A stretch of DNA of 64,000 nucleotides from assembly GCA_002786715.1 (NCBI GenBank), contig PCTW01000038.1, positions 206,304 to 270,303 of the forward strand. Direction: 5' to 3'. The position numbers and the translations under genes were made by a program. The stretch comes from Bdellovibrio sp. CG22_combo_CG10-13_8_21_14_all_39_27. Lineage in GTDB: Bacteria; Bdellovibrionota; Bacteriovoracia; Bacteriovoracales; Bacteriovoracaceae. Below are positions 47,368-60,363 of this stretch, one piece after another. The number at the start of each line of letters is the position of its first letter. Position 1 is the stretch's first letter. The notes under the pieces were generated by a model, which saw only the letters and a list, made by a program, of their open reading frames with translations, made no database searches and was not told the DNA's origin.

Positions 47368-48612
47368 CTAAATTGTCGTTTCAACATAAGCCTCTCGATG
47401 CACTTGTGTAAGAGAGGCTTTTTTTAATTCTTTTGTATCTTTCATAAAATGCCGAATAAATATGACAGTCACGAAAAAGAGGGAAGCCCCAAGTAAAATA
47501 GAATGGGGAGAGTAGATGTTGCCAATAACTCCAACAATGGTGCTACCCAAAATGTTGGGCGTGATAAAGGACATCTCAGAGAGGGACATCACACGATTTA
47601 AATATTCTGAATCGACAGTCGTTGAAAAATAATTTAATTGATTGCTAACCCTGAGAAATACAGAAAAGCCCCAAATGCCAAAAAGGACCAAGCATAAATA
47701 GTAATTAGTAATATAATTGAAAAAGATAAAAAGAATTCCTTCGGTCGTAATGAGTAAAAGTATAAGCTTTCCTAAATGCATTTTGATTTTATTGGTCGAG
47801 GCCATCGTTCCACCAATAAAACCACCCAACCCAAAACAGGCCATCAGAACCCCATATTGATTCTTGGACCATCCCAAACTCTCAGTGGTGTAGGGAATGA
47901 GAAGAGAAATTAAAATACCAATAGAAAAACCAGCGACGCAGTTGTTTATCAAAATTGCTCGAACATCTAATCGTTTCGACACAAATTCCAGACCTTGTTT
48001 GAAGTCTTGAATAAGAGAGAAAGCAGGAGGCTTACTCGTCTTTTTCAATTGTATTCTACGAAGTAAGTATATTCCAAGGACATAAGTTGAGAGATCAAAA
48101 AGCAAAATTTCATTGATGCCGTTGAGCAAAGAGTAGAGAACGGCTCCGAAAAAGGGGCCAGTAATATGAAGTACAGCGAAGGTTGAGGCAAAAAGAGAAT
48201 TGGCATTTTTCATTTCCCCTGGAGGAACCACGTCGACAATTAAAGTTTGGCGTGTAGGTCTGAAAACACCTGTAAAAAAAGCAATAACAGCAGTTGCTCC
48301 GATTATCGTACTTGGAGTTTGGACAAAGAACAAAAGAATGATAGCAGGCATTCTAAAGAATTCGGTTGCGATTAGAATGTTTCGGCGATCGTATTTTTCT
48401 CCGAGGGGTCCTCCGATGATATTTCCTATGGTCATACTAATCAAAAAGAGCGCACGAGAAATACCGAGAATGGCGGCATTTTTCTGAGAGAGATCAAATA
48501 ATAATAATGTAAGAGCAGTTTCTGTTAAAAACGAACCCAATTCAGAGGTTAAGCCCGCAACATATAAACGTGAAAAGTTTTTATAAATGAGGGCCCGAAA
48601 TAATGGAATCAT
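47368..48612 (-). CDS. MFS transporter
   Basis: It has about 12 hydrophobic helices. The MFS loop-like motif is GPLGEKYDRRN. Confidence 0.75.
   Translation of the reverse strand: MIPLFRALIYKNFSRLYVAGLTSELGSFLTETALTLLLFDLSQKNAAILGISRALFLISMTIGNIIGGPLGEKYDRRNILIATEFFRMPAIILLFFVQTPSTIIGATAVIAFFTGVFRPTRQTLIVDVVPPGEMKNANSLFASTFAVLHITGPFFGAVLYSLLNGINEILLFDLSTYVLGIYLLRRIQLKKTSKPPAFSLIQDFKQGLEFVSKRLDVRAILINNCVAGFSIGILISLLIPYTTESLGWSKNQYGVLMACFGLGGFIGGTMASTNKIKMHLGKLILLLITTEGILFIFFNYITNYYLCLVLFGIWGFSVFLRVSNQLNYFSTTVDSEYLNRVMSLSEMSFITPNILGSTIVGVIGNIYSPHSILLGASLFFVTVIFIRHFMKDTKELKKASLTQVHREAYVETTI
47388..47425 (+). terminator. Rho-independent terminator of the M3 peptidase gene, overlapping the 3' end of the convergent MFS ORF
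   Basis: Stem AAGCCTCTC/GAGAGGCTT with a 15-nt loop and a T7 run. Confidence 0.65.
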
Positions 48613-49595
48613 GAGAGGCTAAGTTGTCCTAATTTTGCATGGGCCGTTTTGTATTCGCCTATGATTTTATCGACAAAGTCCTTAACTTTCATTTCTCGAT
48701 CAATGAATTCAATTGAAGGACCGGCACACCAAACCGTTTTATAGGTGGCAGAGAAAGCAGCTTTCTCAAGCGCTTTCATGCCTTTATAAAAGGTGAGCAT
48801 CTTGGCATATTTTTTTAATTGTTTATTTTTATTTAAAACTTTCTCAACCACATTTTGATCGAGACCAATTTTCTTCACGTAAGGAGTTACGATCACTGTA
48901 CAAGGCGAACCAGAAACTTTTGTCGTCAGAGCAATATCTTTAGCACCAAAATCTAAGCAAGCTTTTTTATATTCAGCACTCACTGGGCTCTCAACGCAAG
49001 AAATAAAAGGTGAACCAACCGAAACGCCTTCTGCCCCAAGGGCAAGTACAGATAAAAGTCCTTCGCCTGTTCCAACACCACCTGCTGAAATTACCGGAAG
49101 TTTACAGGATTTTCTGAGCATGGGGACCAGAATTGAAGCAGGAATGGGCCCTGCATGTCCGCCAGCTCCAGAGTTTACGGCAATGAGTGCATCAGCCCCA
49201 AGTTTTTCTACTTTGAGAGCATACTCAACATCCACAACATCACAAAGCACTCGCACTCCTTTAGGTTGTAAGCGTTTAATTGTTTCTTCAGGACTGCCTA
49301 ATGAAGTGATGACAAAGTCAGGATTAATCCGTTCACAAATTTCCATTTGCTTTTCAAGGACGATATTTGATTTGTTAACAATAAGGTTGACTCCAAAAGG
49401 GCCCTTGCAATTGTCTTTTAGACGTTTCATTCCTTCTTCGAAAAGTTCTGGGGTTCGATAATTCAGGGCCGGTATGCAGCCCATGATTCCACTTTCGGCG
49501 GCAGCAATGAGCATCTCTTCGTTGGAAACGAGAAACATGGGGGCCATGATAATGGGGTACTTAATGTTGAACTCTTTAGTAATCCATGTTTGCAT
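48609..49595 (-). CDS. Nitronate monooxygenase / FabK-like FMN oxidoreductase
   Basis: Motifs YPIIMAPM, NSGAGGHAGP and ISAGGVGTGEG. The MFS gene's start overlaps this gene's stop codon (4-nt overlap). Confidence 0.8.
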   Translation of the reverse strand: MQTWITKEFNIKYPIIMAPMFLVSNEEMLIAAAESGIMGCIPALNYRTPELFEEGMKRLKDNCKGPFGVNLIVNKSNIVLEKQMEICERINPDFVITSLGSPEETIKRLQPKGVRVLCDVVDVEYALKVEKLGADALIAVNSGAGGHAGPIPASILVPMLRKSCKLPVISAGGVGTGEGLLSVLALGAEGVSVGSPFISCVESPVSAEYKKACLDFGAKDIALTTKVSGSPCTVIVTPYVKKIGLDQNVVEKVLNKNKQLKKYAKMLTFYKGMKALEKAAFSATYKTVWCAGPSIEFIDREMKVKDFVDKIIGEYKTAHAKLGQLSLS

Positions 49596-49759
49596 TTTTA
49601 CTCCATGCGGATCGCGTTAATCCTATAATAGCTAATATTCACTGACACTTGAGGCCCAGTGTAAGAACATATTAGACCAATTTGAGGTCTTTTGCCTTCT
49701 GAAAAGTTACACTAACTGAAGCTTCAAGGATGAGCGATAGTTATATTTACGGAGGTATT

Positions 49760-50947
49760 ATGAAATTCCATAGGACGTGGATCACTTTAGGGGCAGTACT
49801 TTTTAGTATGCAAGCCTATTCACAATCTTTTTGGGCAACAATTGACAAAGATGTACTTAGCACAATGGAAAAGAATCAGTTTTTCGGTGAAAAAGGCATT
49901 AAATCGACAGGCGATAACATTGCCGTTGTTGAAATTGACGAAAGAAACTTAGGACATTTAAGTTCTATCATGCACGAAGAATTTCGCCGTTGCGGTGGGT
50001 TTGTTCGTCACGATTCACTCGAAGAAGCCATGGGAGTTCTCGACAACGAGCAATTCATGAAGAGCATGAACAAGGCGGAAGTTGCCAATTACACTATCGA
50101 TCAAGATGCAACTGTTAATACCATGATTGCACAAGTTCAAGAGATGAACATCAGATCTCAAATTGAAAAGATGTCTAGTTTCAAAAACCGTTATTACAAA
50201 TCTAGCACAGGCGAAGATTCACAACGCTATGTCTTTGATACCTGGTCTTCACTTATTCAAGGTCGCACTGATGCCAAAGTTGAATATTTCCGCCACTCAG
50301 GATGGGGACAACCAACAGTTATCATGACCCTAGAAGGTGCTTCATCTGAAACTATCGTTTTGGGTGGTCACGCTGATTCAATTGCCGGATGGATGGGCGG
50401 AGCTAATGCGACGGCACCAGGTGCTGACGACAATGCTTCAGGAATTTCAACACTGACTGAAGTTATACGCATTCTTATGGCGAATAACTTTCAACCGCAA
50501 AAAACGATCAAGTTCATGGCTTATGCTGCAGAAGAAGTTGGACTTCTCGGATCAAAAGAAGTGGCAGCTAGCTTCAAAAAAGATAACTTGAATGTTATTG
50601 GTGTAATGCAACTCGATATGACGAACTTCAATGGTTCTCAAGAAGATATCGTTTTAATGACGGATTACACGAATGAAGCTCAAAACCAATTTATTGGATC
50701 ATTAATTGATCATTATCTTCCAGGAATTAAGTGGGGATATGATAAGTGTGGTTACGGATGTAGCGATCATGCATCATGGCATAATCAAGGTTACCCAGCT
50801 TCAATGCCTTTCGAATCACGCAAAGGTGCTATGAATAGAAATATCCATACCTCTCGCGATAGGTTAGATGTTTCTGGTGGCCATGCACGTCACGCTCTTA
50901 AGTTCTCACAAATGGCCATCGCATTTGTCGTTGAATTAGATAAGTGA
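49760..50947 (+). CDS. Secreted M28-family aminopeptidase (Vibrio/Aeromonas leucyl aminopeptidase-like)
   Basis: Signal peptide present. Motifs GGHADS, GADDNASG, AAEEVGLLGS and GCSDH. The start at 49760 has a GGAGG RBS. Confidence 0.85.
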   Translation: MKFHRTWITLGAVLFSMQAYSQSFWATIDKDVLSTMEKNQFFGEKGIKSTGDNIAVVEIDERNLGHLSSIMHEEFRRCGGFVRHDSLEEAMGVLDNEQFMKSMNKAEVANYTIDQDATVNTMIAQVQEMNIRSQIEKMSSFKNRYYKSSTGEDSQRYVFDTWSSLIQGRTDAKVEYFRHSGWGQPTVIMTLEGASSETIVLGGHADSIAGWMGGANATAPGADDNASGISTLTEVIRILMANNFQPQKTIKFMAYAAEEVGLLGSKEVAASFKKDNLNVIGVMQLDMTNFNGSQEDIVLMTDYTNEAQNQFIGSLIDHYLPGIKWGYDKCGYGCSDHASWHNQGYPASMPFESRKGAMNRNIHTSRDRLDVSGGHARHALKFSQMAIAFVVELDK

Positions 50948-50974
50948 TAAAATCATTTTAGTATTTCTTAAGTG

Positions 50975-51002
50975 AGCGCCCCTAAATGGGGCGCTTTTTT
51001 TT
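50975..51002 (+). terminator. Rho-independent terminator
   Basis: Stem AGCGCCCC/GGGGCGCT with a 5-nt loop and a T8 run. Confidence 0.8.
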
Positions 51003-51018
51003 AAAGGGTGAAACCATA

Positions 51019-53751
51019 GTGTCATCAACCGATATTCCCGATCTGATCGATTTCGACTCTCTCTCCTCAATCCTTGAATCCGAAAGAAAAAGCTTATTGA
51101 AGATCAATAACTTTTCTCAAGACGATGAAGGTTTTGTTCGTTCCACTGAAGATGCCAATAAGATTTTAGAAACTCTTAAATTTATTCAAAAAGATTTATC
51201 CACATTGTTTGGAGAGTTTCCCACATTAATGGGACTTTTCGACACTGAGTTTGTTGCTTTTGAAGAATTTATTCAAAGAGACTTTATTCTCGATATTCTC
51301 TTTCTCGAAGATTGTATGATTCCTGAAAAGGAAATGTTCTTCTTTGGACAAGATGGTGGTCTCAATCCCAATATCTTGGAACTCCATTTAAAAACATTGC
51401 GCGATTGGATTGCGCTTAAAAAAGATAAGCACGTCGCCAATCAAACGCTGATTAAAGACAATTTTAATATTGATATGAAATCGCAGGCAATGGAATGTCA
51501 GTGTGTTGCTTGTCAGGCTGATTTTAGAACTCGGCTCAGAGAATATCTCTACGATCAATGTGTAGAAATTGTGAATGCCGGAAAAGCTAAGATCGAGGAA
51601 GTATTTGAAACGGGTAAAGGGGATGTTAGCGAGCTCTACACAGATATGCAGAAGAGCTTAGATAAAATTTTTCACAGTGTTCGTTTTAAACTCAAACGTT
51701 CAACTGTCAATAGACTTGAATCACAAGTTAAGTCTTATATGCGTGAAATTTTTACTGCTCCTTCAGAATTGGCGGCGAAGCAGAAAAATTATCTTGTACC
51801 TTTCTTTAAGAAGTTAATGGTTCAAGAGGAATTGAATCAAGATTTGATCACAGATGAGGAATATGATCGCTTTTTGGCCCAGTTAAATACCAATATTTGG
51901 CGCAATGACCGATTTCTCGAACGAGAATTTAAAAAACTTTTAAAGTCTGTGATGTTTTTGAAACGCAAAGATATCTCAGGCAAAATTTTGCAAGATTATC
52001 TCGGAGAGTTTTGGATTCACTCTCAAGCGCGAACCATTACTCGTAAAATTATCTATCATATGGGTCCTACCAACTCAGGTAAAACCTATCATGCCATCGA
52101 AGCCCTATGCCAGGCTAAGAAGGGCTGCTATCTCGCTCCGTTGAGACTTTTGGCGGCTGAGCTTTACGATAAAATGAATACTAAAGGTGTGACAACGACG
52201 CTTTTGACTGGTGAAGAGATTATTGAAGTGGAAGGGGCAACCCATTATGCTTCAACAATCGAAATGGCCAAGCTCCATGAGTATTTTGATTGTTGTGTCA
52301 TTGATGAAATTCAAATGATCACCGATTCCCAGAGAGGATGGGCCTGGACACGTGCCTTAGTTAACGTCTTTGCTGATGAGGTTCATATTTGCGGTGACGC
52401 CAGTGTGCTCAATCTGGTTAAAAAGATTGTCGAACTGTGCGGAGATGTTCTTGAAGTTCGCAATTATGAAAGAATGACTAAATTGAATGTAGAGAATCGC
52501 CCAATAACTTTGGGTGAACTTCAAAAGTCAGACGCACTCATTGTCTTTTCACGGCGAAATGCCTTGAAGTATAAAACGGATCTAGAACGATTAGATTTTA
52601 AAGTTTCTATCGTTTATGGTCGACTTTCTCCAGAAGTAAGAAGGGAGCAAGCCCGTAAATTTGACCAAGGTGAAACCGATATCATCGTGGCCACAGATGC
52701 CATTTCGATGGGGATGAACCTCCCTATTAGAAGAATCGTTTTCTCGACACTCACTAAATATATTGATAGCAAAGAACATCCCATAACTGAGAGTGAGATT
52801 AAGCAGATTGCAGGTCGAGCGGGTCGTTACCAACGTTACCCAACAGGCTTTGTGACTTGTTTGCAAAAAGAAGAAAATGGACTAGACCAAATTCGCGATG
52901 CTCTTGAGGCAACTCTCGAGCAACAAGATAAATGTATGGTGGGTCCCGATTTAGAAATCTTTTCGCAAGTGAATGAAGCCCTTGAGAGCAATGGACTTTC
53001 ACGCTTGAGACTCTCAGAGTTCTTGCGTCTTTTTAACACGATGATCTTTCAATTACCTTTCTTCTGTGTTGATTTGAAAGAAATGATCGAACTTGCAGAA
53101 ATGGTTGAAGATGCGGATGTCGGCAATAAATTAACAAGTGCAGAGACTTTTGGATTTGCCTGTTCGCCAGTAAATCTTGGGTTGTTAGAGCATGTTCAGT
53201 ATTACGTTTGGATATTGAATAATTATGTCACTGGGAACATGATCCATAATGAAAAAATTGATTTTAAATCTGGAGACATTGATTATCTCGAAACTACAAT
53301 TAAGTGCGTAGAGCTTTATCAATGGTTATCGCGCCATTTTGGAAAGAATCTCTTTGTCTTCGATGAACAAGATCTTCTCCATAATAAAGGTCAAGCGATC
53401 GAACAGCTCAATACATTATTGTCGGATAAAATCGTACCGACGTGTTCGAGTTGCGGGACTAAGTTATCAGATAAATCGAAATTCGCTATTTGCGAAGAAT
53501 GTTTCAAAACGAGAAGGTTTAGAAATAACCGCGGATCTCAACGAGGTTTTGGAAATAAACCTGGTAGAGAGGGTGACAAAGGTCCTGAGTCTGGTCCCAA
53601 TAATAATCGCAATAGAGGACCTCGGAAATTTGATCGTCGCCCTGGTGGCCAGAAGAGCGGTCCTGGCGCAGGTGGACCTCCGGGTGCACCCGGAGGAGGT
53701 TCTGATAATGGACCACGGCGCCGACGAAAGCGTTCTAACTTTAAAAAGTAA
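51019..53751 (+). CDS. Suv3-type (SUPV3L1-like) ATP-dependent RNA helicase with an unassigned ~340-aa N-terminal region, a C-terminal Zn-ribbon and an Arg/Gly/Pro-rich tail
   Basis: GPTNSGKTYHAIEAL, VIDEIQMITDSQRGWAWTRAL, ATDAISMGMNLPIRRIVF and QIAGRAGR match the human/yeast Suv3 core as I recall it. A GTG start at 51019 was chosen because the ATG at 50986 lies in the upstream terminator. Confidence 0.82.
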   Translation: MSSTDIPDLIDFDSLSSILESERKSLLKINNFSQDDEGFVRSTEDANKILETLKFIQKDLSTLFGEFPTLMGLFDTEFVAFEEFIQRDFILDILFLEDCMIPEKEMFFFGQDGGLNPNILELHLKTLRDWIALKKDKHVANQTLIKDNFNIDMKSQAMECQCVACQADFRTRLREYLYDQCVEIVNAGKAKIEEVFETGKGDVSELYTDMQKSLDKIFHSVRFKLKRSTVNRLESQVKSYMREIFTAPSELAAKQKNYLVPFFKKLMVQEELNQDLITDEEYDRFLAQLNTNIWRNDRFLEREFKKLLKSVMFLKRKDISGKILQDYLGEFWIHSQARTITRKIIYHMGPTNSGKTYHAIEALCQAKKGCYLAPLRLLAAELYDKMNTKGVTTTLLTGEEIIEVEGATHYASTIEMAKLHEYFDCCVIDEIQMITDSQRGWAWTRALVNVFADEVHICGDASVLNLVKKIVELCGDVLEVRNYERMTKLNVENRPITLGELQKSDALIVFSRRNALKYKTDLERLDFKVSIVYGRLSPEVRREQARKFDQGETDIIVATDAISMGMNLPIRRIVFSTLTKYIDSKEHPITESEIKQIAGRAGRYQRYPTGFVTCLQKEENGLDQIRDALEATLEQQDKCMVGPDLEIFSQVNEALESNGLSRLRLSEFLRLFNTMIFQLPFFCVDLKEMIELAEMVEDADVGNKLTSAETFGFACSPVNLGLLEHVQYYVWILNNYVTGNMIHNEKIDFKSGDIDYLETTIKCVELYQWLSRHFGKNLFVFDEQDLLHNKGQAIEQLNTLLSDKIVPTCSSCGTKLSDKSKFAICEECFKTRRFRNNRGSQRGFGNKPGREGDKGPESGPNNNRNRGPRKFDRRPGGQKSGPGAGGPPGAPGGGSDNGPRRRRKRSNFKK

Positions 53752-53759
53752 TTTGAACC

Positions 53760-54569
53760 ATGAACATTGATCATTATGCTGAGACATTACTTCATCAAGG
53801 CGATTTAGATCATAAGTTGATCTCCCCTAAGCTGGTAACGAGCTTTAACAAATTTCAATTGCAGAATATCCCAGACTTGCCTGGCCGCTGTGAGAAAATG
53901 AAGATTTCCGACGAGCGAGTCTCTTTTCCTAAAAATTTAACAGATCTTAATCAAAGAGCAAAAGCTCTGCACTTTTTTGCCAACCATGAGCTGTTGGCGA
54001 TCGAGATGTTGGCGGCAGCATTATTAAAGTTTGATCTCGATGAAACTGCCCAGAAAATTGTTTTAGCGACGATTGCGGATGAGCAAAAACATTTTCGTCT
54101 TTACTGCGAACGTATGAAAGACTTTGGTTGCGAGTTTGGCGACTATCCCGTTAATGATTTCTTCTGGCGCCAACTTTTAAAAATTGAAACTTTTGAGTCT
54201 TTTTATGCACTCGTTGCACTATCACTTGAACAGGCCAATTTAGACTTTGCTCAATACTACAAAGACGTTTTTATTCGTCTGGGAGATCCACAAACAGCAA
54301 ATGTTCTCGATATTGTTTTAAAAGATGAAGAGCGGCATGTTCATTTTGGAATCGATCATCTCGCATCTAAAATTGAAAATAGCGAAGAACTTTGGGACTA
54401 TTACCAACAACTTTTACCCTACAATTTCACACCAGCTCGGGCCCGTGGCAATATGTTTAATGAGCAATCTCGAATTAACGCAGGTTTCCCTGAGCACTAT
54501 ATAGAAAAGATTAAAAATTTTAAAGATGAATATAAAATTGTGAATCGCAAGCAATGGAAGCAAAAATGA
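53760..54569 (+). CDS. DUF455 ferritin-like di-iron protein
   Basis: Four-helix di-iron pattern: FANHELLAIEM, ADEQKHFRLYCERMKDFGCEFGDYPV, LEQANLD and GDPQTANVLDIVLKDEERHVHFG. It begins 8 bp after the helicase stop. Confidence 0.78.
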   Translation: MNIDHYAETLLHQGDLDHKLISPKLVTSFNKFQLQNIPDLPGRCEKMKISDERVSFPKNLTDLNQRAKALHFFANHELLAIEMLAAALLKFDLDETAQKIVLATIADEQKHFRLYCERMKDFGCEFGDYPVNDFFWRQLLKIETFESFYALVALSLEQANLDFAQYYKDVFIRLGDPQTANVLDIVLKDEERHVHFGIDHLASKIENSEELWDYYQQLLPYNFTPARARGNMFNEQSRINAGFPEHYIEKIKNFKDEYKIVNRKQWKQK

Positions 54570-55651
54570 GTTTTCTTCCTGGCTTTAATTTTGAACAACG
54601 ACTTTTTTTTCCTCAACAACCAGTAAATAATCTAATCTCTGAAGAGTTTGATTATTTAATCTTATTGCTAGAGTATGAGGCTCTTGCAACGGATCGAGTT
54701 TTTGATCAAGACTATTTATCTTATTTAAAAAAGATTAAAGAGGACGATGTTATCATTTCTTCAAGTAAAGATGGAAGTCATTACTGGTGGGGAGAGATTA
54801 CGGATATTGAATTAAGCCAGAAAATAAATTCTAAAATTTTTTCTCATCAAGTAGCGAAAAACTTCGACCTTGTTCCTGAATCATGTCGACTCATCGAAAA
54901 TGCCTTTGATTTTAAAAATCATATTCAACAATATAAAGAATATCATCGTTGGGTGGTGAAGAGCCCTTATTCCTTCTCTGGTCTAGGCAATAAGGTCTTT
55001 GATAGTACGCATCTACCTCAACTCGAGTGGAATGAGCCGGTGCTATTAGAACCTTGGTTTAACCGAACTCTGGATATTGGAATGACATATTTAAAGCAAA
55101 GTCGATTTCAAGATTATTTTGGAGTTCAAAATTTGAACGATCCACAAGGCCGCTTCAAAGGAGCTTTGATTCAGCCTTTTATGCCAGAAGTTGAAGAACT
55201 TCATGGGAAACTGAAGCCTGCTCTTCACTATCTCTCAACACTTTCCCCTGAAAATAATTTACAGATCGATGCCTTTTACTATCTCGAAGAGGGTGAGAGA
55301 AAAATTTATCCCTTGGTTGAAATTAATTGTCGCAAAACTATGGGCTGGGTGACGTGGAGCTTGTGGAAGAAATTCGGGACTCAGAATATTGGAGTTTTCT
55401 TGATGTGGCCTACAAGCGCTTTGAAAAAGAGTGAATCGTGGAAAAGTTTTGAAAATAGTATTGGTGATCAAATGTGGACGAAAAATACAGCGAAAGGCTT
55501 TTTACCACTTTCGCCATTAGACCGAAAATTTATGACTTTCTTTTTAGTCGAATCAAATATTAAACAAGCGCAGAATCAAATAGTGGAATTATGGAACAAG
55601 CTCTCGAAGAAAGAGAGTCCACTACCGCTTGAATTTATGATTTACTTCTAA
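54566..55651 (+). CDS. ATP-grasp-like ligase of unknown specificity
   Basis: WVVKSPYSFSGLGNKVF is the Lys plus Gly-rich loop, VLLEPWF is hinge-like, and YPLVEINCRKTMG is the E-x-N Mg site. The ATG at 54566 overlaps the DUF455 TGA (ATGA). Confidence 0.5.
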   Translation: MSFLPGFNFEQRLFFPQQPVNNLISEEFDYLILLLEYEALATDRVFDQDYLSYLKKIKEDDVIISSSKDGSHYWWGEITDIELSQKINSKIFSHQVAKNFDLVPESCRLIENAFDFKNHIQQYKEYHRWVVKSPYSFSGLGNKVFDSTHLPQLEWNEPVLLEPWFNRTLDIGMTYLKQSRFQDYFGVQNLNDPQGRFKGALIQPFMPEVEELHGKLKPALHYLSTLSPENNLQIDAFYYLEEGERKIYPLVEINCRKTMGWVTWSLWKKFGTQNIGVFLMWPTSALKKSESWKSFENSIGDQMWTKNTAKGFLPLSPLDRKFMTFFLVESNIKQAQNQIVELWNKLSKKESPLPLEFMIYF

Positions 55652-56251
55652 TAATAATTCGCCAGCCTCATCAGCCGTTCTTCCCCAGGATACGATCCCA
55701 TCCTGATGACCTTTCATTACGAAGAGACCTGAAGGTTTATTATACGTTAGTTTTTGAACAGCAACGGCCATATCAATGGTTCCATAGGGAATCGAAGCGG
55801 CTGTTGAAAGATAATTGTGATTTATCATTTCATTCCAGAGATGTGTATCGTGACCATGAAAGACAGCGCTAATTTCTTGATTCGCTAAATAAATTGCAGC
55901 ATGAGTAAGGGACTCACTCGAAGGTTTCATGGGCCCTTCTGAATTAACAATATTCTTTTCAAGGTCATAACTGTGAACGAGCGTGTATTCATTTGCAGTG
56001 AGAACGGGAAGGTGACCAGTTTGTGTTCCAGTGATTAAGAACTCTGGTTGATCGTTTCTTCCAAATCTCTTTATCAAAAGGGAGAGGTTACCATATCCGA
56101 TATGATCACTCTTATATTCACCGATTAATTCGATGGCGTAGAGCTTTTTACGCCAATTCTCGAGTGAATTGATCGTGTTAATGTCCACCTTAAGCGGCAT
56201 TTCTTGATTGTTTAGTGTGAATTTAATGACCCCATCATCAATAATTGTCAT
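55622..56251 (-). CDS. Class II aldolase/adducin-family protein
   Basis: SESLTHAAIYLANQEISAVFHGHDTHLW and GHQDGIVSWGRTADEAGELL fit the class II aldolase metal-His and C-terminal motifs. Confidence 0.62.
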   Translation of the reverse strand: MTIIDDGVIKFTLNNQEMPLKVDINTINSLENWRKKLYAIELIGEYKSDHIGYGNLSLLIKRFGRNDQPEFLITGTQTGHLPVLTANEYTLVHSYDLEKNIVNSEGPMKPSSESLTHAAIYLANQEISAVFHGHDTHLWNEMINHNYLSTAASIPYGTIDMAVAVQKLTYNKPSGLFVMKGHQDGIVSWGRTADEAGELLLEVNHKFKR

Positions 56252-56356
56252 AAAATTAAAGCCTCGATCTGAATTTTCGATAAGTTATCTACAAGAATTT
56301 AAAATTCATGTACGATAGAAATTATAGACTAAAACACTGGAAGTAAAATAGTCGCC

Positions 56357-57547
56357 ATGAGTAAGTTGGATGAACTAAAAGAAAAGTTTGAAGAAGTCAT
56401 CGAAAGTTTGAAATCCAAACTGAAGCGCGGTGGCAAATCTAAAGACGAAGATGAAGACGATGAAGACGAGGAAGTCGACACTGAGGAAAGTACCAGTGAA
56501 GTCGACATAGATGAAATTACAGAGAAAGCTTCTAAGAAAGTAAAAGCTGATGCTGACGACGAAGATGATGAAGACGAAGAAGATGACGATGACGATAAGA
56601 CAGATCCTAAAAAAGTAGCACCGACCGACAAAGAAAAGAAAAAACAATTAATGATAAGAGTTGGATTGGGAATTGTTATTCTCTATCTTGCAGCTGATCA
56701 ATTTTTATTAACTGAATCAACAGATGAGTTACCGGTAGTTCAGGAGATAAAACCCAAAAGACCTAAAAGAAAGAAAAAACCAAAGACCGAGACAGCAGCT
56801 CCGAATGCAGAAGCAACGACGCCTGATGCTCAGGCGGTTCCAGCTGAGAATACTGCAAGTGCTGAGCAGCCTGCAGTTGATATTCCACCAGAGACTCCTG
56901 CTGAGGTGATGAAAACTCCTGAAGAGACTGTGCAGCCAGTTGTTGTAGAAACACCAAAAGAACCGACTCCTACACCAGTAGTTGAGCAGGCACCCGAGAT
57001 TGTTGAACCACCATCGATGGGAGTTGAAGAAACTCCAGCCATAGTTGAGACAGCCCCTGAAGTAACAGCTGAGCCAACTCCAGCAGAGACAACCATTCTT
57101 GATGACCCAGCTCCAGAGACGACACCAACGGTAGAAACCACCACTGGTCAACAAGATGAAATGAGTAAAGAGATTGATACTTTGGTAGATAATGTTGAAG
57201 AACCAAAGAAAGACCCAGTTGATAAGATGAATAAAATGTTGGATAGCAAAGCTGACTTCATTGCTCCTCCTAACTATGAAAGAACTGGAAGAGGATTGGT
57301 TTACAACTGCACAGGAAAACATTGGGCTTGCGTAGATAAGCTAAGTTATTTTCAATGTCGTGGGAATGAAGTATGGAGTAAGCAAAATAAGAAAAATCCA
57401 GAATGTGTTATTAAAAACGTTTATGCCTCTGATAAAGACTGTGAAGCGATACAAGGTTATTACGTTAAATTCAATGAGCCGACGGGATTTTGTACAGATG
57501 CAACTCCAACGAAAACTCAAGTCGAAGAAACAGATCTCAATATGTAA
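56357..57547 (+). CDS. Single-pass membrane protein: acidic D/E-rich N-terminus, one TM helix, a Pro/Thr/Glu/Val-rich spacer and a Cys-containing C-terminal domain
   Basis: DEDEDDEDEE.. and DDEDDEDEEDDDDD tracts. The TM helix is LMIRVGLGIVILYLAADQFLL and the PT-rich region is PEETVQPVVVETPKEPTPTPVVEQAPE. The C-terminal ~100 aa contain 8 Cys. Confidence 0.55.
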   Translation: MSKLDELKEKFEEVIESLKSKLKRGGKSKDEDEDDEDEEVDTEESTSEVDIDEITEKASKKVKADADDEDDEDEEDDDDDKTDPKKVAPTDKEKKKQLMIRVGLGIVILYLAADQFLLTESTDELPVVQEIKPKRPKRKKKPKTETAAPNAEATTPDAQAVPAENTASAEQPAVDIPPETPAEVMKTPEETVQPVVVETPKEPTPTPVVEQAPEIVEPPSMGVEETPAIVETAPEVTAEPTPAETTILDDPAPETTPTVETTTGQQDEMSKEIDTLVDNVEEPKKDPVDKMNKMLDSKADFIAPPNYERTGRGLVYNCTGKHWACVDKLSYFQCRGNEVWSKQNKKNPECVIKNVYASDKDCEAIQGYYVKFNEPTGFCTDATPTKTQVEETDLNM

Positions 57548-57555
57548 TTATTTTT

Positions 57556-58314
57556 TTAAGCGGCGTCTTTATTGAACTCACCTTCAATAATAGTGAGTTT
57601 GAAAGTTCCTTCTTTTTTGGCTTCTTCTCTAGCCATCGCAGCACAGAAGTGTTCAACCAATTGAGGATCAAATTGTGAGCCTGAAAACTCCTTGAGTTCG
57701 CTGAAAGCAACTTCATAAGCGAGACCTTTTCTGTAAGGGCGCGTAGAAGTCATGGCATCAAAGGTATCAGCAATAAGAATAATTCTTGAGAAAAGGGGAA
57801 TTTCTTCTCCTTTGAGTGAGTCCGGATACCCACGGCCATCGTATCTCTCATGATGGTGTTTGGCATATTTGGCAACGAGTTCAAAGGGCTCGAAGCCTTC
57901 AAGAATTTCAGCAGACTTTGAAGGGTGAGCTTTCATTTCTAAGAACTCTTCTTCTGTCAGGCGCGCTGGCTTTAAAAGAACTTTATCAGGTACACCAATT
58001 TTTCCAATATCGTGAAAAAGGGCGGCGAGTTCTAAGTCATAGAGTTCATCACCACTAAGTTCCAATTCTTTACCAAGGACGAGAGCATAATAGGTTACTC
58101 TCATGCTATGACCAAAAGTATAATGGTCCTTACAATCTAGGGCGTGAAGAATCGCTCTTACTGCCATTTCACAGAAATCTTTTTGCTTGCGTTTAAGGTC
58201 TTGAACTTCGCGAGATAGGTTCATGAGCGCAACATTAGTTACGATTTCAGTCATAGAAATGACATTGTCATTTGAATACTCTTCGCCTTTTTTTAATGCT
58301 GCTTTCGTTGCCAT
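57556..58314 (-). CDS. HD-GYP domain phosphodiesterase (cyclic-di-GMP type)
   Basis: Motifs HSMRV, LFHDIGKIGVPD and HHERYDGRGYP. Confidence 0.85.
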   Translation of the reverse strand: MATKAALKKGEEYSNDNVISMTEIVTNVALMNLSREVQDLKRKQKDFCEMAVRAILHALDCKDHYTFGHSMRVTYYALVLGKELELSGDELYDLELAALFHDIGKIGVPDKVLLKPARLTEEEFLEMKAHPSKSAEILEGFEPFELVAKYAKHHHERYDGRGYPDSLKGEEIPLFSRIILIADTFDAMTSTRPYRKGLAYEVAFSELKEFSGSQFDPQLVEHFCAAMAREEAKKEGTFKLTIIEGEFNKDAA

Positions 58315-58586
58315 AATCTGCCTTTTCTAACACTTAGTGTAATTCTAACTGAACCTCTCAGGTTTTTCGGAATCTAGATCAGTAAACTTGAGCTAAAGCT
58401 CATGAAATTCGAGTTATTTCAGCTAGCTGCCATAATTTCGACAATTTAAAGTGATGCCCAGAAATAGGGGCAGAATGAAAAAAATCATCGTTGTTTTAAT
58501 GGGTTAGCGCTCATCTGGGCTAGCCCCTCAAGAGTGAACATGTTAGTCTTTTATCTACATTTTGACTTAGCTAAAGGATTGGCTTC

Positions 58587-59753
58587 ATGGATCAGATGGC
58601 CGTCTTATATCACGGTAAACGGATCAAGGCGTATATTTCAACTCTCGAAAAGGATTTCAGTAATGAGGTCAATGTCGAGTGGGTTAACCTATCAAGTAAA
58701 GAAGATATTCTCCATTGGCTATCACAGAACACCATCCGATTTTCAGCAATTATCGTCGAATATTTTGGCGAGGAAATTGATACTTCATTACCTGCGATGA
58801 GAACTCCTATTTTGCTCGCTGCTAATTTTCAAGAATTGGGAGATGACGAATGGGGGCTTCGACAAATCTGTTCTAAAAGTAAAAAACTTCATGGAGTCAT
58901 TGATACTGCGAGAGATATCCAATTCTTCTATCCATTGATCAGAAGTTCTATTCAACTAGGTAGAACATTATTAGAAATGGCGAATCTCTCTGAGACGGGA
59001 ATGAAAATGTCTCACATCATGTCGATGGCGTTAGGCGAACTTACTCGAGTTAAAAAACTTCACGAAAGATTAGTTCCTCTTCGCAATGAAACTTTTAAAG
59101 GACTTAAAGTCTTTTCAAAATTTGCGGCGGGAGAGAGTTCGGGAGGAGAGTTCTTTGATATTTTTACCACAGATCAAAAAATTAATATTCTTCTCTCTAG
59201 TGCAACTTCTTATGTTGCTTCTAGTGTGATCCTTTCGCATTTCGAAAATTTACGAAAAATAGTAAACATAGATAGATCTGTGCTCGAAACCTTTCTGGAA
59301 GAATTGACCTGTGAACTGCGAGATCTCGAATTGATTGATCGCGATAGACCGGAAATGCTTGAACTCGCCATTGCCCAAATTGATTTAAGAACCATGGTGT
59401 GTTCTGGATTTTTCTTTGGACGCCAAGAAATTATGACAACTAAAGAAATTGCTGTTGCGGCCAACCAATACCCCTTGAATGAAAACTTTTTTGAGACGGC
59501 CTATCAAGAGTTTAAGTTAAAGCGAAATGAAAAATATCTGGTTTATTCACCTGGAGTTAAAAAGAATACCAATGGAATGATTAACAATCTCACTTATCGT
59601 GAATTCTTAAAGTCTCAAGACGATAAATCCAGTAAAGAAATATTAAACGAAGCCTTTTTTCAATTGAAGAAAAACTCGGCCAAAGACTTTTTAAAATATG
59701 ACGCCACCGTCATTTGTTTAGAGGTAGATCCCAATGCCATTGTACAAGTTTAG
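58587..59753 (+). CDS. PP2C/SpoIIE-family phosphatase with an N-terminal degenerate receiver-like domain
   Basis: GESSGGEFFDIF resembles the SpoIIE SGDFYD motif. The N-terminal ~120 aa are CheY-like in pattern, but AIIVEYFG has Glu where the phospho-Asp is expected. Confidence 0.6.
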   Translation: MDQMAVLYHGKRIKAYISTLEKDFSNEVNVEWVNLSSKEDILHWLSQNTIRFSAIIVEYFGEEIDTSLPAMRTPILLAANFQELGDDEWGLRQICSKSKKLHGVIDTARDIQFFYPLIRSSIQLGRTLLEMANLSETGMKMSHIMSMALGELTRVKKLHERLVPLRNETFKGLKVFSKFAAGESSGGEFFDIFTTDQKINILLSSATSYVASSVILSHFENLRKIVNIDRSVLETFLEELTCELRDLELIDRDRPEMLELAIAQIDLRTMVCSGFFFGRQEIMTTKEIAVAANQYPLNENFFETAYQEFKLKRNEKYLVYSPGVKKNTNGMINNLTYREFLKSQDDKSSKEILNEAFFQLKKNSAKDFLKYDATVICLEVDPNAIVQV

Positions 59754-60363
59754 TATCTTAGCCTTATCATTACTTTTTTCCATCTCAAGCTGGGCTTTTG
59801 ACGACAATGCTTGTCTGCAAAACTCATTTGATGTGGTGGTCTCTCATAAAGCTCCACCTTTGGGGTTGTCCAAAAACGTACTGACCATTAAAAAAGATGG
59901 ATGTGTTCTCAATATTGAACACACGAAATGGTATTTCATGAAGAAAGCTTGGTTGATTGATGTTTGTCGCGAGCCGGTTCACATCAAACGAAATAGTACT
60001 TCGGTCGAAGTCTTAAAGCGTGCCTATGCTTGTTCAAGCGAAGATCAAAGTGATTTCTGTAAAGACTATTACTTAATGAGAGAGCTGCTTCAAGACGATG
60101 GACTGATCTTTGCTGAAGGTGAAAAAGAAAATTTGAACTCTGATCATGGCAAAGTTTATTGCGCTTACGTTCTTCTCGATGCCCATCTTCAAAAGGGTAT
60201 GGTTTTAAGCCGCGATCAAGTTTATGAAGGCGTGATTGTTCCTTTGACAGGGAAAATGTCAGCTCCTTCAAGCTCTTCAACTACTGAGAAAGAAGAAGTA
60301 ATAGAGGATTCAGCACGTCCTCTTGAGCCAACTAAGAATGATCCTTCGACGGGAACGTTTTAG
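59734..60363 (+). CDS. Secreted Cys-containing protein with a Ser/Thr/Glu-rich tail
   Basis: Signal peptide ...FSISSWA and 8 Cys. It overlaps the upstream gene by 20 nt. Confidence 0.45.
   Translation: MPLYKFSILALSLLFSISSWAFDDNACLQNSFDVVVSHKAPPLGLSKNVLTIKKDGCVLNIEHTKWYFMKKAWLIDVCREPVHIKRNSTSVEVLKRAYACSSEDQSDFCKDYYLMRELLQDDGLIFAEGEKENLNSDHGKVYCAYVLLDAHLQKGMVLSRDQVYEGVIVPLTGKMSAPSSSSTTEKEEVIEDSARPLEPTKNDPSTGTF

Follow-up and report, generated by a model that had tools for sequence, protein, structure and literature searches.

Results

Organisation of the locus

A stretch of 64,000 nucleotides (nt) from Bdellovibrio sp. CG22_combo_CG10-13_8_21_14_all_39_27, a member of the Bacteriovoracaceae, was analyzed (assembly GCA_002786715.1, contig PCTW01000038.1, positions 206,304 to 270,303 of the forward strand). 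It is called the window hereafter, and all coordinates of the locus are counted from its first letter. It holds three consecutive genes encoding a helicase of the mitochondrial Suv3 type, a DUF455 protein of the ferritin-like clan and an ATP-grasp ligase, which a preliminary description of the same DNA had regarded as an apparent operon, possibly for a module that modifies or remodels RNA or RNA-binding proteins. According to the results presented here, the second and the third gene encode what appear to be the two halves of one enzyme, while the helicase is a neighbour specific to the family. The genes are arranged as follows:

51019-53751, plus strand: Suv3-type helicase gene, GTG start, 910 amino acids (aa)
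53760-54569, plus strand: DUF455 gene, ATG start, 269 aa, separated from the helicase stop codon by a gap of 8 nt
54566-55651, plus strand: ATP-grasp ligase gene, 361 aa, its ATG overlapping the DUF455 stop codon TGA (54567-54569) as ATGA

Coordinates and spacing, with an 8-bp gap followed by an ATGA overlap, were as given in the preliminary description. The features commonly demanded of an operon were found together in these genes, i.e. a common strand, minimal or overlapping spacers, a conserved order and no internal terminator; a sequence scan of the unit returned no convincing terminator, just weak 5-bp terminator-like sites at chance level. Judged from this arrangement, the DUF455 and ligase genes are predicted to be translationally coupled via the ATGA overlap, and the pair is very probably co-transcribed with the helicase gene upstream. 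The helicase start codon is most plausibly GTG 51019, which is preceded at a distance of 7-14 nt by AAGGGTGA. An alternative start at ATG 50986 was rejected, since it lies inside a hairpin and since the alignments of many relatives begin at the first residue encoded from GTG 51019.

The Suv3-type helicase

The first gene product is classified by its sequence as a genuine Suv3-type RNA helicase of superfamily 2. It matched the Pfam families PF22527 (DEXQc_Suv3; 213.4 bits, expectation value (E) 1.6e-63, cut-off 27) and PF00271 (Helicase_C; 53.7 bits, cut-off 23.5), with PF12513 (SUV3_C; 17.6 bits) staying under its cut-off of 27, and in a sequence search of the PDB it retrieved the yeast-type Suv3 6f4a with E 9e-79 and human SUPV3L1 with E 2.7e-71. 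The SUPV3L1-like motifs GPTNSGKTYHA and DEIQM...RGWAWTRAL, to which attention had been drawn before, are indeed present. The DExQ core comprises residues ~335-705 and is followed at the C-terminus (53443-53751) by a zinc ribbon of the pattern CxxC...CxxC and a basic tail rich in Arg, Gly and Pro, while the N-terminal ~340 aa (51019-52038) were without match in the Pfam and PDB searches. A CQCVACQ motif was observed within this N-terminal region. In tblastn comparisons with relatives most loci align from helicase residue 1-12 over most of the protein.

The DUF455 di-metal protein

The second protein matched PF04305 with 155.9 bits (E 1.8e-45, cut-off 34.3), in agreement with the earlier assignment to the ferritin-like clan, and contains the expected ExxH-type motifs in the form of DEQKH and DEERH. 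Its predicted metal ligands are E77/E82, E108-x-x-H111, E157 and E190-x-x-H193, and all of these residues (E77, E82, E108, H111, E157, E190, H193) proved invariant in 44 DUF455 sequences. The AlphaFold model is a helical bundle with a mean predicted local distance difference test score (pLDDT) of 93. A sequence search of the PDB yielded no solved relative, and the Foldseek comparison of the model with the PDB gave weak matches to aldehyde-deformylating oxygenase, PaaA and bacterioferritin (template modelling (TM) score 0.40-0.47, E >= 0.067), next to weak Pfam matches to AurF and Ald_deCOase. The kinship with the tRNA hydroxylase MiaE that had been put forward was not recovered, as MiaE was neither matched in Pfam nor found among the 50 best Foldseek matches in the PDB. 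As a side observation, a stand-alone DUF455 subfamily from other families of the phylum (loci L021-L029, L032 and L038) outscores the protein of the window on the Pfam model.

The ATP-grasp ligase

No match in Pfam or NCBIfam was obtained for the third protein. The AlphaFold model (pLDDT 94.5, predicted TM score 0.92) retrieved 450 PDB entries at E <= 0.001 with Foldseek, and those listed were all ATP-grasp proteins, with a top TM score of 0.72. Best placed were the Streptomyces ATP-grasp peptide ligases 8ynd/8ynq (8ynd with E 3.5e-14, TM 0.71) and PGM1 (3wvq), followed by SAOUHSC_02373, BesA, PylC, PurK and biotin carboxylase. In profile alignments K132-SPYSFSGLG falls on K-TRFGGYDGKG of PurK, which provides the ATP-binding lysine and the glycine loop, and D235...E252-x-N254-x-R256 falls on the Mg/ATP motif D...E-I-N-A-R of 8ynd. 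Within the ligase family no variation was seen at D235, N254 and R256 and hardly any at E252; E162 is also among the key residues. The Lys/Gly loop and the E-x-N site that had been described are thus present as KSPYSFSGLG and VEINCR, and the structure prediction returned the ATP-grasp fold on which the earlier assignment depended. A Pfam scan of 31 family members produced scattered weak matches to PF02222, GSH-S_ATP, DUF3182 and ATP-grasp_3 (best E 0.0008-0.04). According to the model, the third protein is an ATP-grasp ligase of the three-domain fold with intact active-site residues. The analogy to RimK- or TTL-type tailing enzymes drawn in the preliminary description found no support: neither occurs among the 50 best Foldseek matches, where PGM1-like peptide ligases, BesA, PylC and PurK stand instead, nor in the Pfam scans of the family.

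Fusion and co-occurrence of the DUF455 and ligase genes

Related loci were collected by scanning with a DUF455 alignment and retaining one genome per species, which resulted in 80 loci. Bacteriovorax, Halobacteriovorax and Peredibacter genomes and metagenome-assembled genomes (MAGs) were the nearest named relatives of the window organism. Split genes were found in 41 loci, all of the Bacteriovoracaceae/Halobacteriovoraceae type, 38 loci were fused and one was cut by a contig end. Outside the Bacteriovoracaceae-type group every assessable locus (38/38) presented a single DUF455-ATP-grasp open reading frame (ORF) of 650-870 aa, with hosts in Verrucomicrobiota, Myxococcota, Planctomycetota, Latescibacterota, Lentisphaerales and Oligoflexus as well as among unclassified Proteobacteria-type MAGs. 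Three other families of the phylum to which the window belongs carry a DUF455 ORF of 650-917 aa, with a C-terminal region of ~400 residues that shows homology to the third protein. A homology search with one fusion recovered at least 1395 clusters of ~680-740 aa, including SAR324, Gemmatimonadota and Acidobacteriota; the fused clusters are named just "DUF455 family protein" or "ferritin-like". With the ligase profile, 4071 representatives at E <= 1e-10 were retrieved among 1.84 billion proteins.

Co-occurrence was followed in a sample of 151 genomes of the phylum. Every strong ligase match (E <= 2.3e-26) was located beside or fused to DUF455, with the exceptions of one extra paralogue and one fragment at a contig end. 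The DUF455-adjacent ligase was present in 24/24 genomes of the family of the window, and the fused form in 8 genomes elsewhere. In genomes with a stand-alone DUF455 protein no ligase was found, neither by a single-protein search of two genomes nor as a profile match in the sampled ones. A distant stand-alone ligase homologue (P0010) was observed next to IspF and EPSP synthase, with DUF455 absent nearby.

The domain order of the fused form equals the gene order of the split form, and the break lies inside the linker. This constitutes the classical fusion/fission signature of two cooperating proteins, by which the DUF455 and ATP-grasp proteins are to be seen as two halves of one enzyme that was probably split from a single ~700-aa polypeptide in an ancestor of the Bacteriovoracaceae-type group. 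The idea of an oxidation combined with an ATP-dependent ligation, already expressed in the preliminary description, is strongly backed by the occurrence of the two-domain fusion in many phyla. That the three genes are neighbours of no functional meaning, the third perhaps encoding no real enzyme, could be argued from the surrounding ten genes, which are syntenic in the family although functionally unrelated. However, the fusion in many phyla and the near-perfect co-occurrence in the phylum sample speak against it, as do the conserved catalytic residues, the confident models and the wide spread of the ligase profile, which renders this explanation extremely improbable. For the second and third gene it is effectively refuted by the fusion data, and for the first gene it merges with the explanation preferred below.

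Genomic neighbours of the enzyme pair

No neighbour accompanies the fusion universally. Clustering of ORFs over 38 fusion loci found none in more than 3-4 loci except artefacts of overlapping frames, and the seven gene-called fusion contexts differ from each other. Genes for Peptidase M17, PNP_UDP_1 and tryptophanyl-tRNA synthetase (TrpRS) recur beside the fusion, each arrangement within single lineages. The order is PNP_UDP_1 - Peptidase M17 - fusion in SAR324-like contigs (L134, L135, L137) and TrpRS - fusion - Peptidase M17 in Oligoflexia (L136, L097, L127), where TrpRS lies directly upstream in three loci. Downstream of the fusion, the SAR324-like loci also share a conserved ORF of 87-95 aa without Pfam match. 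Helicases are found near 3-4 of ~45 fusions, a number not clearly above chance.

A second ligase copy of 334 aa without DUF455 was detected in a genome of the same family (L139, G069:C8, 5522-10501, minus strand). It belongs to a four-gene operon with 4-nt overlaps, together with a 408-aa protein without assignment, a NodU/CmcH-type carbamoyltransferase and a GT1 glycosyltransferase; from its gene content this is a probable glycoconjugate-tailoring cluster. Taken together, the context of this paralogue, the structural likeness to PGM1, BesA and PylC, and the M17 neighbours lean towards amide ligation on a small molecule or short peptide over RNA. The RNA-related neighbours, TrpRS and scattered helicases, keep the idea of an RNA substrate alive at low probability.

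The same neighbourhoods bear on the assumption that the pair modifies a protein. A residue would be hydroxylated by the oxygenase half, the ligase half would attach an amino acid to a side chain or a terminus in the manner of RimK or TTL tailing, and in this family Suv3 or one of its partners might be the target. PGM1, a close structural relative, is described as attaching a non-proteinogenic amino acid to the N-terminus of a ribosomally synthesised peptide (Noike et al., 2015). An M17 aminopeptidase adjoins the fusion in two lineages, the small ORF of the SAR324-like loci might be counted in favour of it, and the helicase carries a long basic tail. Against this stand the absence of any conserved candidate substrate gene beside the enzyme across phyla, the position of RimK and TTL outside the top 50 fold matches, and the carbamoyltransferase/glycosyltransferase context of the paralogue, which points to small-molecule tailoring, so that a protein target is held to be very unlikely.

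Linkage to the Suv3 helicase gene

Within its family the helicase is universal. The Suv3 gene occurs in 24/24 sampled genomes of the family with E ~1e-62, each of them possessing all three genes, while the phylum sample outside this family contained a strong Suv3 match in one genome only. In 36/40 related loci, all of the Bacteriovoracaceae/Halobacteriovoraceae type, distances from -89 to +37 nt were measured between the Suv3 stop and the DUF455 start, most of them between -4 and +10, and gene-called contigs agree. A gene on the opposite strand (192 or ~510-520 aa) separates Suv3 from DUF455 in 4/40 loci. Antisense genes of this kind, a feature of some Bacteriovoracaceae genera, were noted at the positions below, and the three copies scanned (L070, L060, L140) were without Pfam match:

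L070, 6395-7957, minus strand: inserted antisense gene
L076, 6406-7926, minus strand: inserted antisense gene
L085, 6393-7943, minus strand: inserted antisense gene
L140, 4290-5825, minus strand: inserted antisense gene
L060, 7138-7713, minus strand: inserted antisense gene

Elsewhere the linkage is absent. No strong Suv3-type match was found in 21/27 fusion-bearing genomes, and among the six possessing Suv3 the helicase is near the fusion in one only (L102), where a Suv3-like helicase gene follows 2 kb downstream with a TetR gene in between. Apart from L102, no Suv3 was found within 8 kb of the fusion outside the Bacteriovoracaceae-type family, and two Oligoflexus genomes with both fusion and Suv3 showed no Suv3 in the examined flank of the fusion. 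L126 was considered as an independent Suv3-fusion linkage and discarded, the helicase there being of the DUF3516 type. Conservation of the adjacency in related genomes, which the preliminary description had asked for, was thus seen within the family-type loci and not beyond them. Since the fusion is mostly found in genomes lacking Suv3, the helicase is not required by the enzyme pair. The Suv3 link is confined to Bacteriovoracaceae/Halobacteriovoraceae-type genomes, and the helicase is a family-specific neighbour.

These data bear on the proposal of a single RNA-directed module made up of all three proteins, in which Suv3 would present tRNA, rRNA or mRNA and the pair would modify a nucleoside or an RNA-bound protein. 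It is favoured by the overlapping or nearly overlapping Suv3/DUF455 junctions, by the presence of all three genes throughout the sampled family, and by TrpRS immediately upstream of the fusion in the three Oligoflexia loci together with helicases near L102, L126 and L131. It is opposed by the Suv3-less state of most genomes with the fused enzyme, by the two Oligoflexus genomes without Suv3 in the examined flank of the fusion, and by the position of the adjacency inside a long syntenic block of unrelated genes, broken by an antisense gene in four loci. Furthermore, the top fold matches of the ligase are small-molecule and peptide ligases rather than RimK or TTL, and MiaE is missing among the matches of the DUF455 protein. 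In addition, the genome of the window holds a single MiaA gene, located on another contig, and none was seen near the stand-alone ligase homologue P0010. The module is consequently regarded as unlikely. Somewhat more doubtful is its specific version for the Bacteriovoracaceae, in which Suv3 exposes structured RNA and the split enzyme builds an oxidised amide-linked nucleoside or modifies an RNA-bound protein.

Flanking genes and the upstream hairpin

The three genes are part of a block of about ten genes, which is syntenic across most Bacteriovoracaceae loci and whose functions look unrelated:

48609-60363, both strands: syntenic block in the order NMO (minus), M28, Suv3, DUF455, ligase, class II aldolase (minus), acidic/Pro-rich membrane protein, HD (minus) and two more genes
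49730-50947, plus strand: M28 aminopeptidase gene, directly upstream of the hairpin and the helicase gene
50925-50953, plus strand: candidate sigma-70-like promoter TTGTCG-17-TAAAAT with extended TG, 9/12 consensus matches, a consensus match alone
50974-51003, plus strand: G+C-rich hairpin whose 9-bp stem includes 7 G-C pairs, with a T8 run, resembling an intrinsic terminator
55622-56251, minus strand: class II aldolase/adducin-family gene (PF00596, E 1.4e-13), convergent

As the whole block is syntenic in the family, conserved order alone is no proof of shared function. The downstream end of the unit is marked by the convergent aldolase gene, which reaches 30 nt into the 3' end of the ligase gene and whose convergent position is kept in 28/41 related loci. 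Recent horizontal transfer was dismissed in view of the even G+C content of 33-46% over 49-58 kb.

A strong terminator had been reported directly before the unit. The hairpin and its T8 run do exist, with a folding energy of -25.1 kcal/mol (z = -3.9 versus shuffles), and yet a clean operon boundary is not given: the hairpin ends at a distance of 16 nt from the helicase start codon downstream, and the sole promoter-like site near this start, which overlaps the stop codon of the M28 peptidase gene, is situated upstream of the hairpin, so that helicase transcripts would have to read through it. The M28-Suv3 spacer of many relatives also contains a hairpin, and some spacers measure just 18 nt. In several relatives the hairpin spans the helicase start, with the GTG being part of its 3' arm. 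It may represent a leaky terminator, an attenuator, a translational control element or a stem-loop at the 5' end of the mRNA for the helicase.

Discussion

A proposed two-subunit oxidase-ligase behind a helicase gene

The explanation we favour, and consider rather more probable than its opposite, is that of a split two-subunit oxidase-ligase, probably with a small-molecule or peptide substrate, which is co-transcribed with the Suv3 helicase but functionally separable from it. The second and third gene would encode the two subunits of one enzyme, most likely a heterodimer. By analogy with ferritin-like di-iron enzymes, the DUF455 half with its full di-metal site would probably activate O2 and hydroxylate or oxidise the substrate. 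The PGM1-like ATP-grasp half, as its fold and active-site residues suggest, would convert a carboxylate into an acyl-phosphate and subsequently form an amide bond with an amine, both halves catalysing consecutive steps on the same small molecule or short peptide. The Suv3 helicase would act as an RNA-remodelling or RNA-decay enzyme encoded on the shared transcript and would be no obligate functional partner of the pair. The inclusion of Suv3 in a common module with an RNA target, as suggested in the preliminary description, therefore finds no support: the pair can dispense with Suv3, the adjacency is limited to the family and the surrounding block is syntenic as a whole.

Several observations weigh against such a separation of helicase and enzyme. 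The helicase and DUF455 genes adjoin much more closely than synteny would ordinarily bring about, often with an overlap, and the preservation of this junction across proteins of ~45% identity would be compatible with a functional tie to Suv3. Beside the fusion, RNA-related genes were encountered in other lineages: Oligoflexia contributed TrpRS, Silvanigrella a DbpA helicase, L126 its DUF3516 helicase and L102 its Suv3-like helicase, although their occurrence was judged to lie not clearly above chance. With regard to the chemistry proposed, the literature naming DUF455 yielded no characterisation of substrate, product, metal content or activity for any DUF455 protein.

Novelty and implications

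DUF455 is widespread and is also mentioned in papers on plants, fungi and corals. In the literature search no mention of PF04305 or IPR007402 was found, COG2833 appeared in an unrelated context only, and no literature linking Suv3 with Bdellovibrio-type bacteria was found. The domain classes as such are well known; the obligatory DUF455-ATP-grasp pairing and its split, Suv3-coupled form are, to our knowledge, undescribed.

By tying one DUF455 subfamily to an ATP-grasp ligase of the PGM1 kind, whether as a fusion or through overlapping genes, the results point to a concrete two-step enzyme of oxidation and amide ligation that is open to expression and assay, after which thousands of entries termed "DUF455 family protein" or "hypothetical" could be re-annotated. 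Moreover, a bacterial lineage with a universal mitochondrial-type Suv3 in a fixed genomic context offers a tractable bacterial setting for this helicase. If the three proteins did act jointly on RNA, the DUF455-ATP-grasp enzyme would be the first ATP-grasp-based RNA-modification system and bacterial Suv3 would gain a defined partner; at present there is no support for this stricter claim of a module for RNA modification.

Comparison with known systems

The helicase shares the DExQ core as well as GPTNSGKT, DEIQ and QIAGRAGR with SUV3/SUPV3L1 of the mitochondrial RNA degradosome (yeast Suv3-Dss1 mtEXO, human SUV3-PNPase). Unlike these it is bacterial and possesses an unmatched N-terminus of ~340 aa, a zinc ribbon and an Arg/Gly-rich tail, and no exoribonuclease adjoins it, as no ribonuclease occurred among the gene products scanned with Pfam between 49730 and 58314.

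With ferritin-like di-iron oxygenases such as aldehyde-deformylating oxygenase, PaaA and AurF the DUF455 protein has the four-helix-bundle core and the E/ExxH/E/ExxH ligands in common. It differs from the known di-iron oxygenases in the lack of a close solved relative (best E 0.067, TM <= 0.47) and in a conserved N-terminal extension of ~60 residues (K19, P41, R43, F56, P57), which characterizes the DUF455 subfamily of the window. The stand-alone DUF455 proteins of Bdellovibrio-type genomes are 20-28% identical to that of the window and are without ligase, whereas the subfamily of the window always comes with a ligase.

The ligase resembles PGM1 (the pheganomycin peptide ligase, 3wvq/3wvr) and 8ynd/8ynq in its fold (E 3.5e-14 to 5e-12, TM 0.64-0.72), and the Pre-ATP-grasp domain PF18604, a further trait of this group, occurs in some of the fused homologues. 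In contrast to these enzymes it lies outside any natural-product gene cluster, is only ~10-12% identical to them, has a DUF455 domain as its partner or as part of the same chain, and belongs to a family with invariant motifs of its own, i.e. WWG, NSK and an N-terminal E..L.

The closest counterpart of the pair as a whole is the fused "DUF455 family protein" of ~700 aa, which combines these two domains in identical order, with a DUF455 half that is 36-41% identical and a C-terminal part to which the ligase of the window is recognisably homologous. Different from this single polypeptide, the enzyme of the window is encoded by two genes, translationally coupled as predicted from their overlap, right behind a Suv3 helicase gene.

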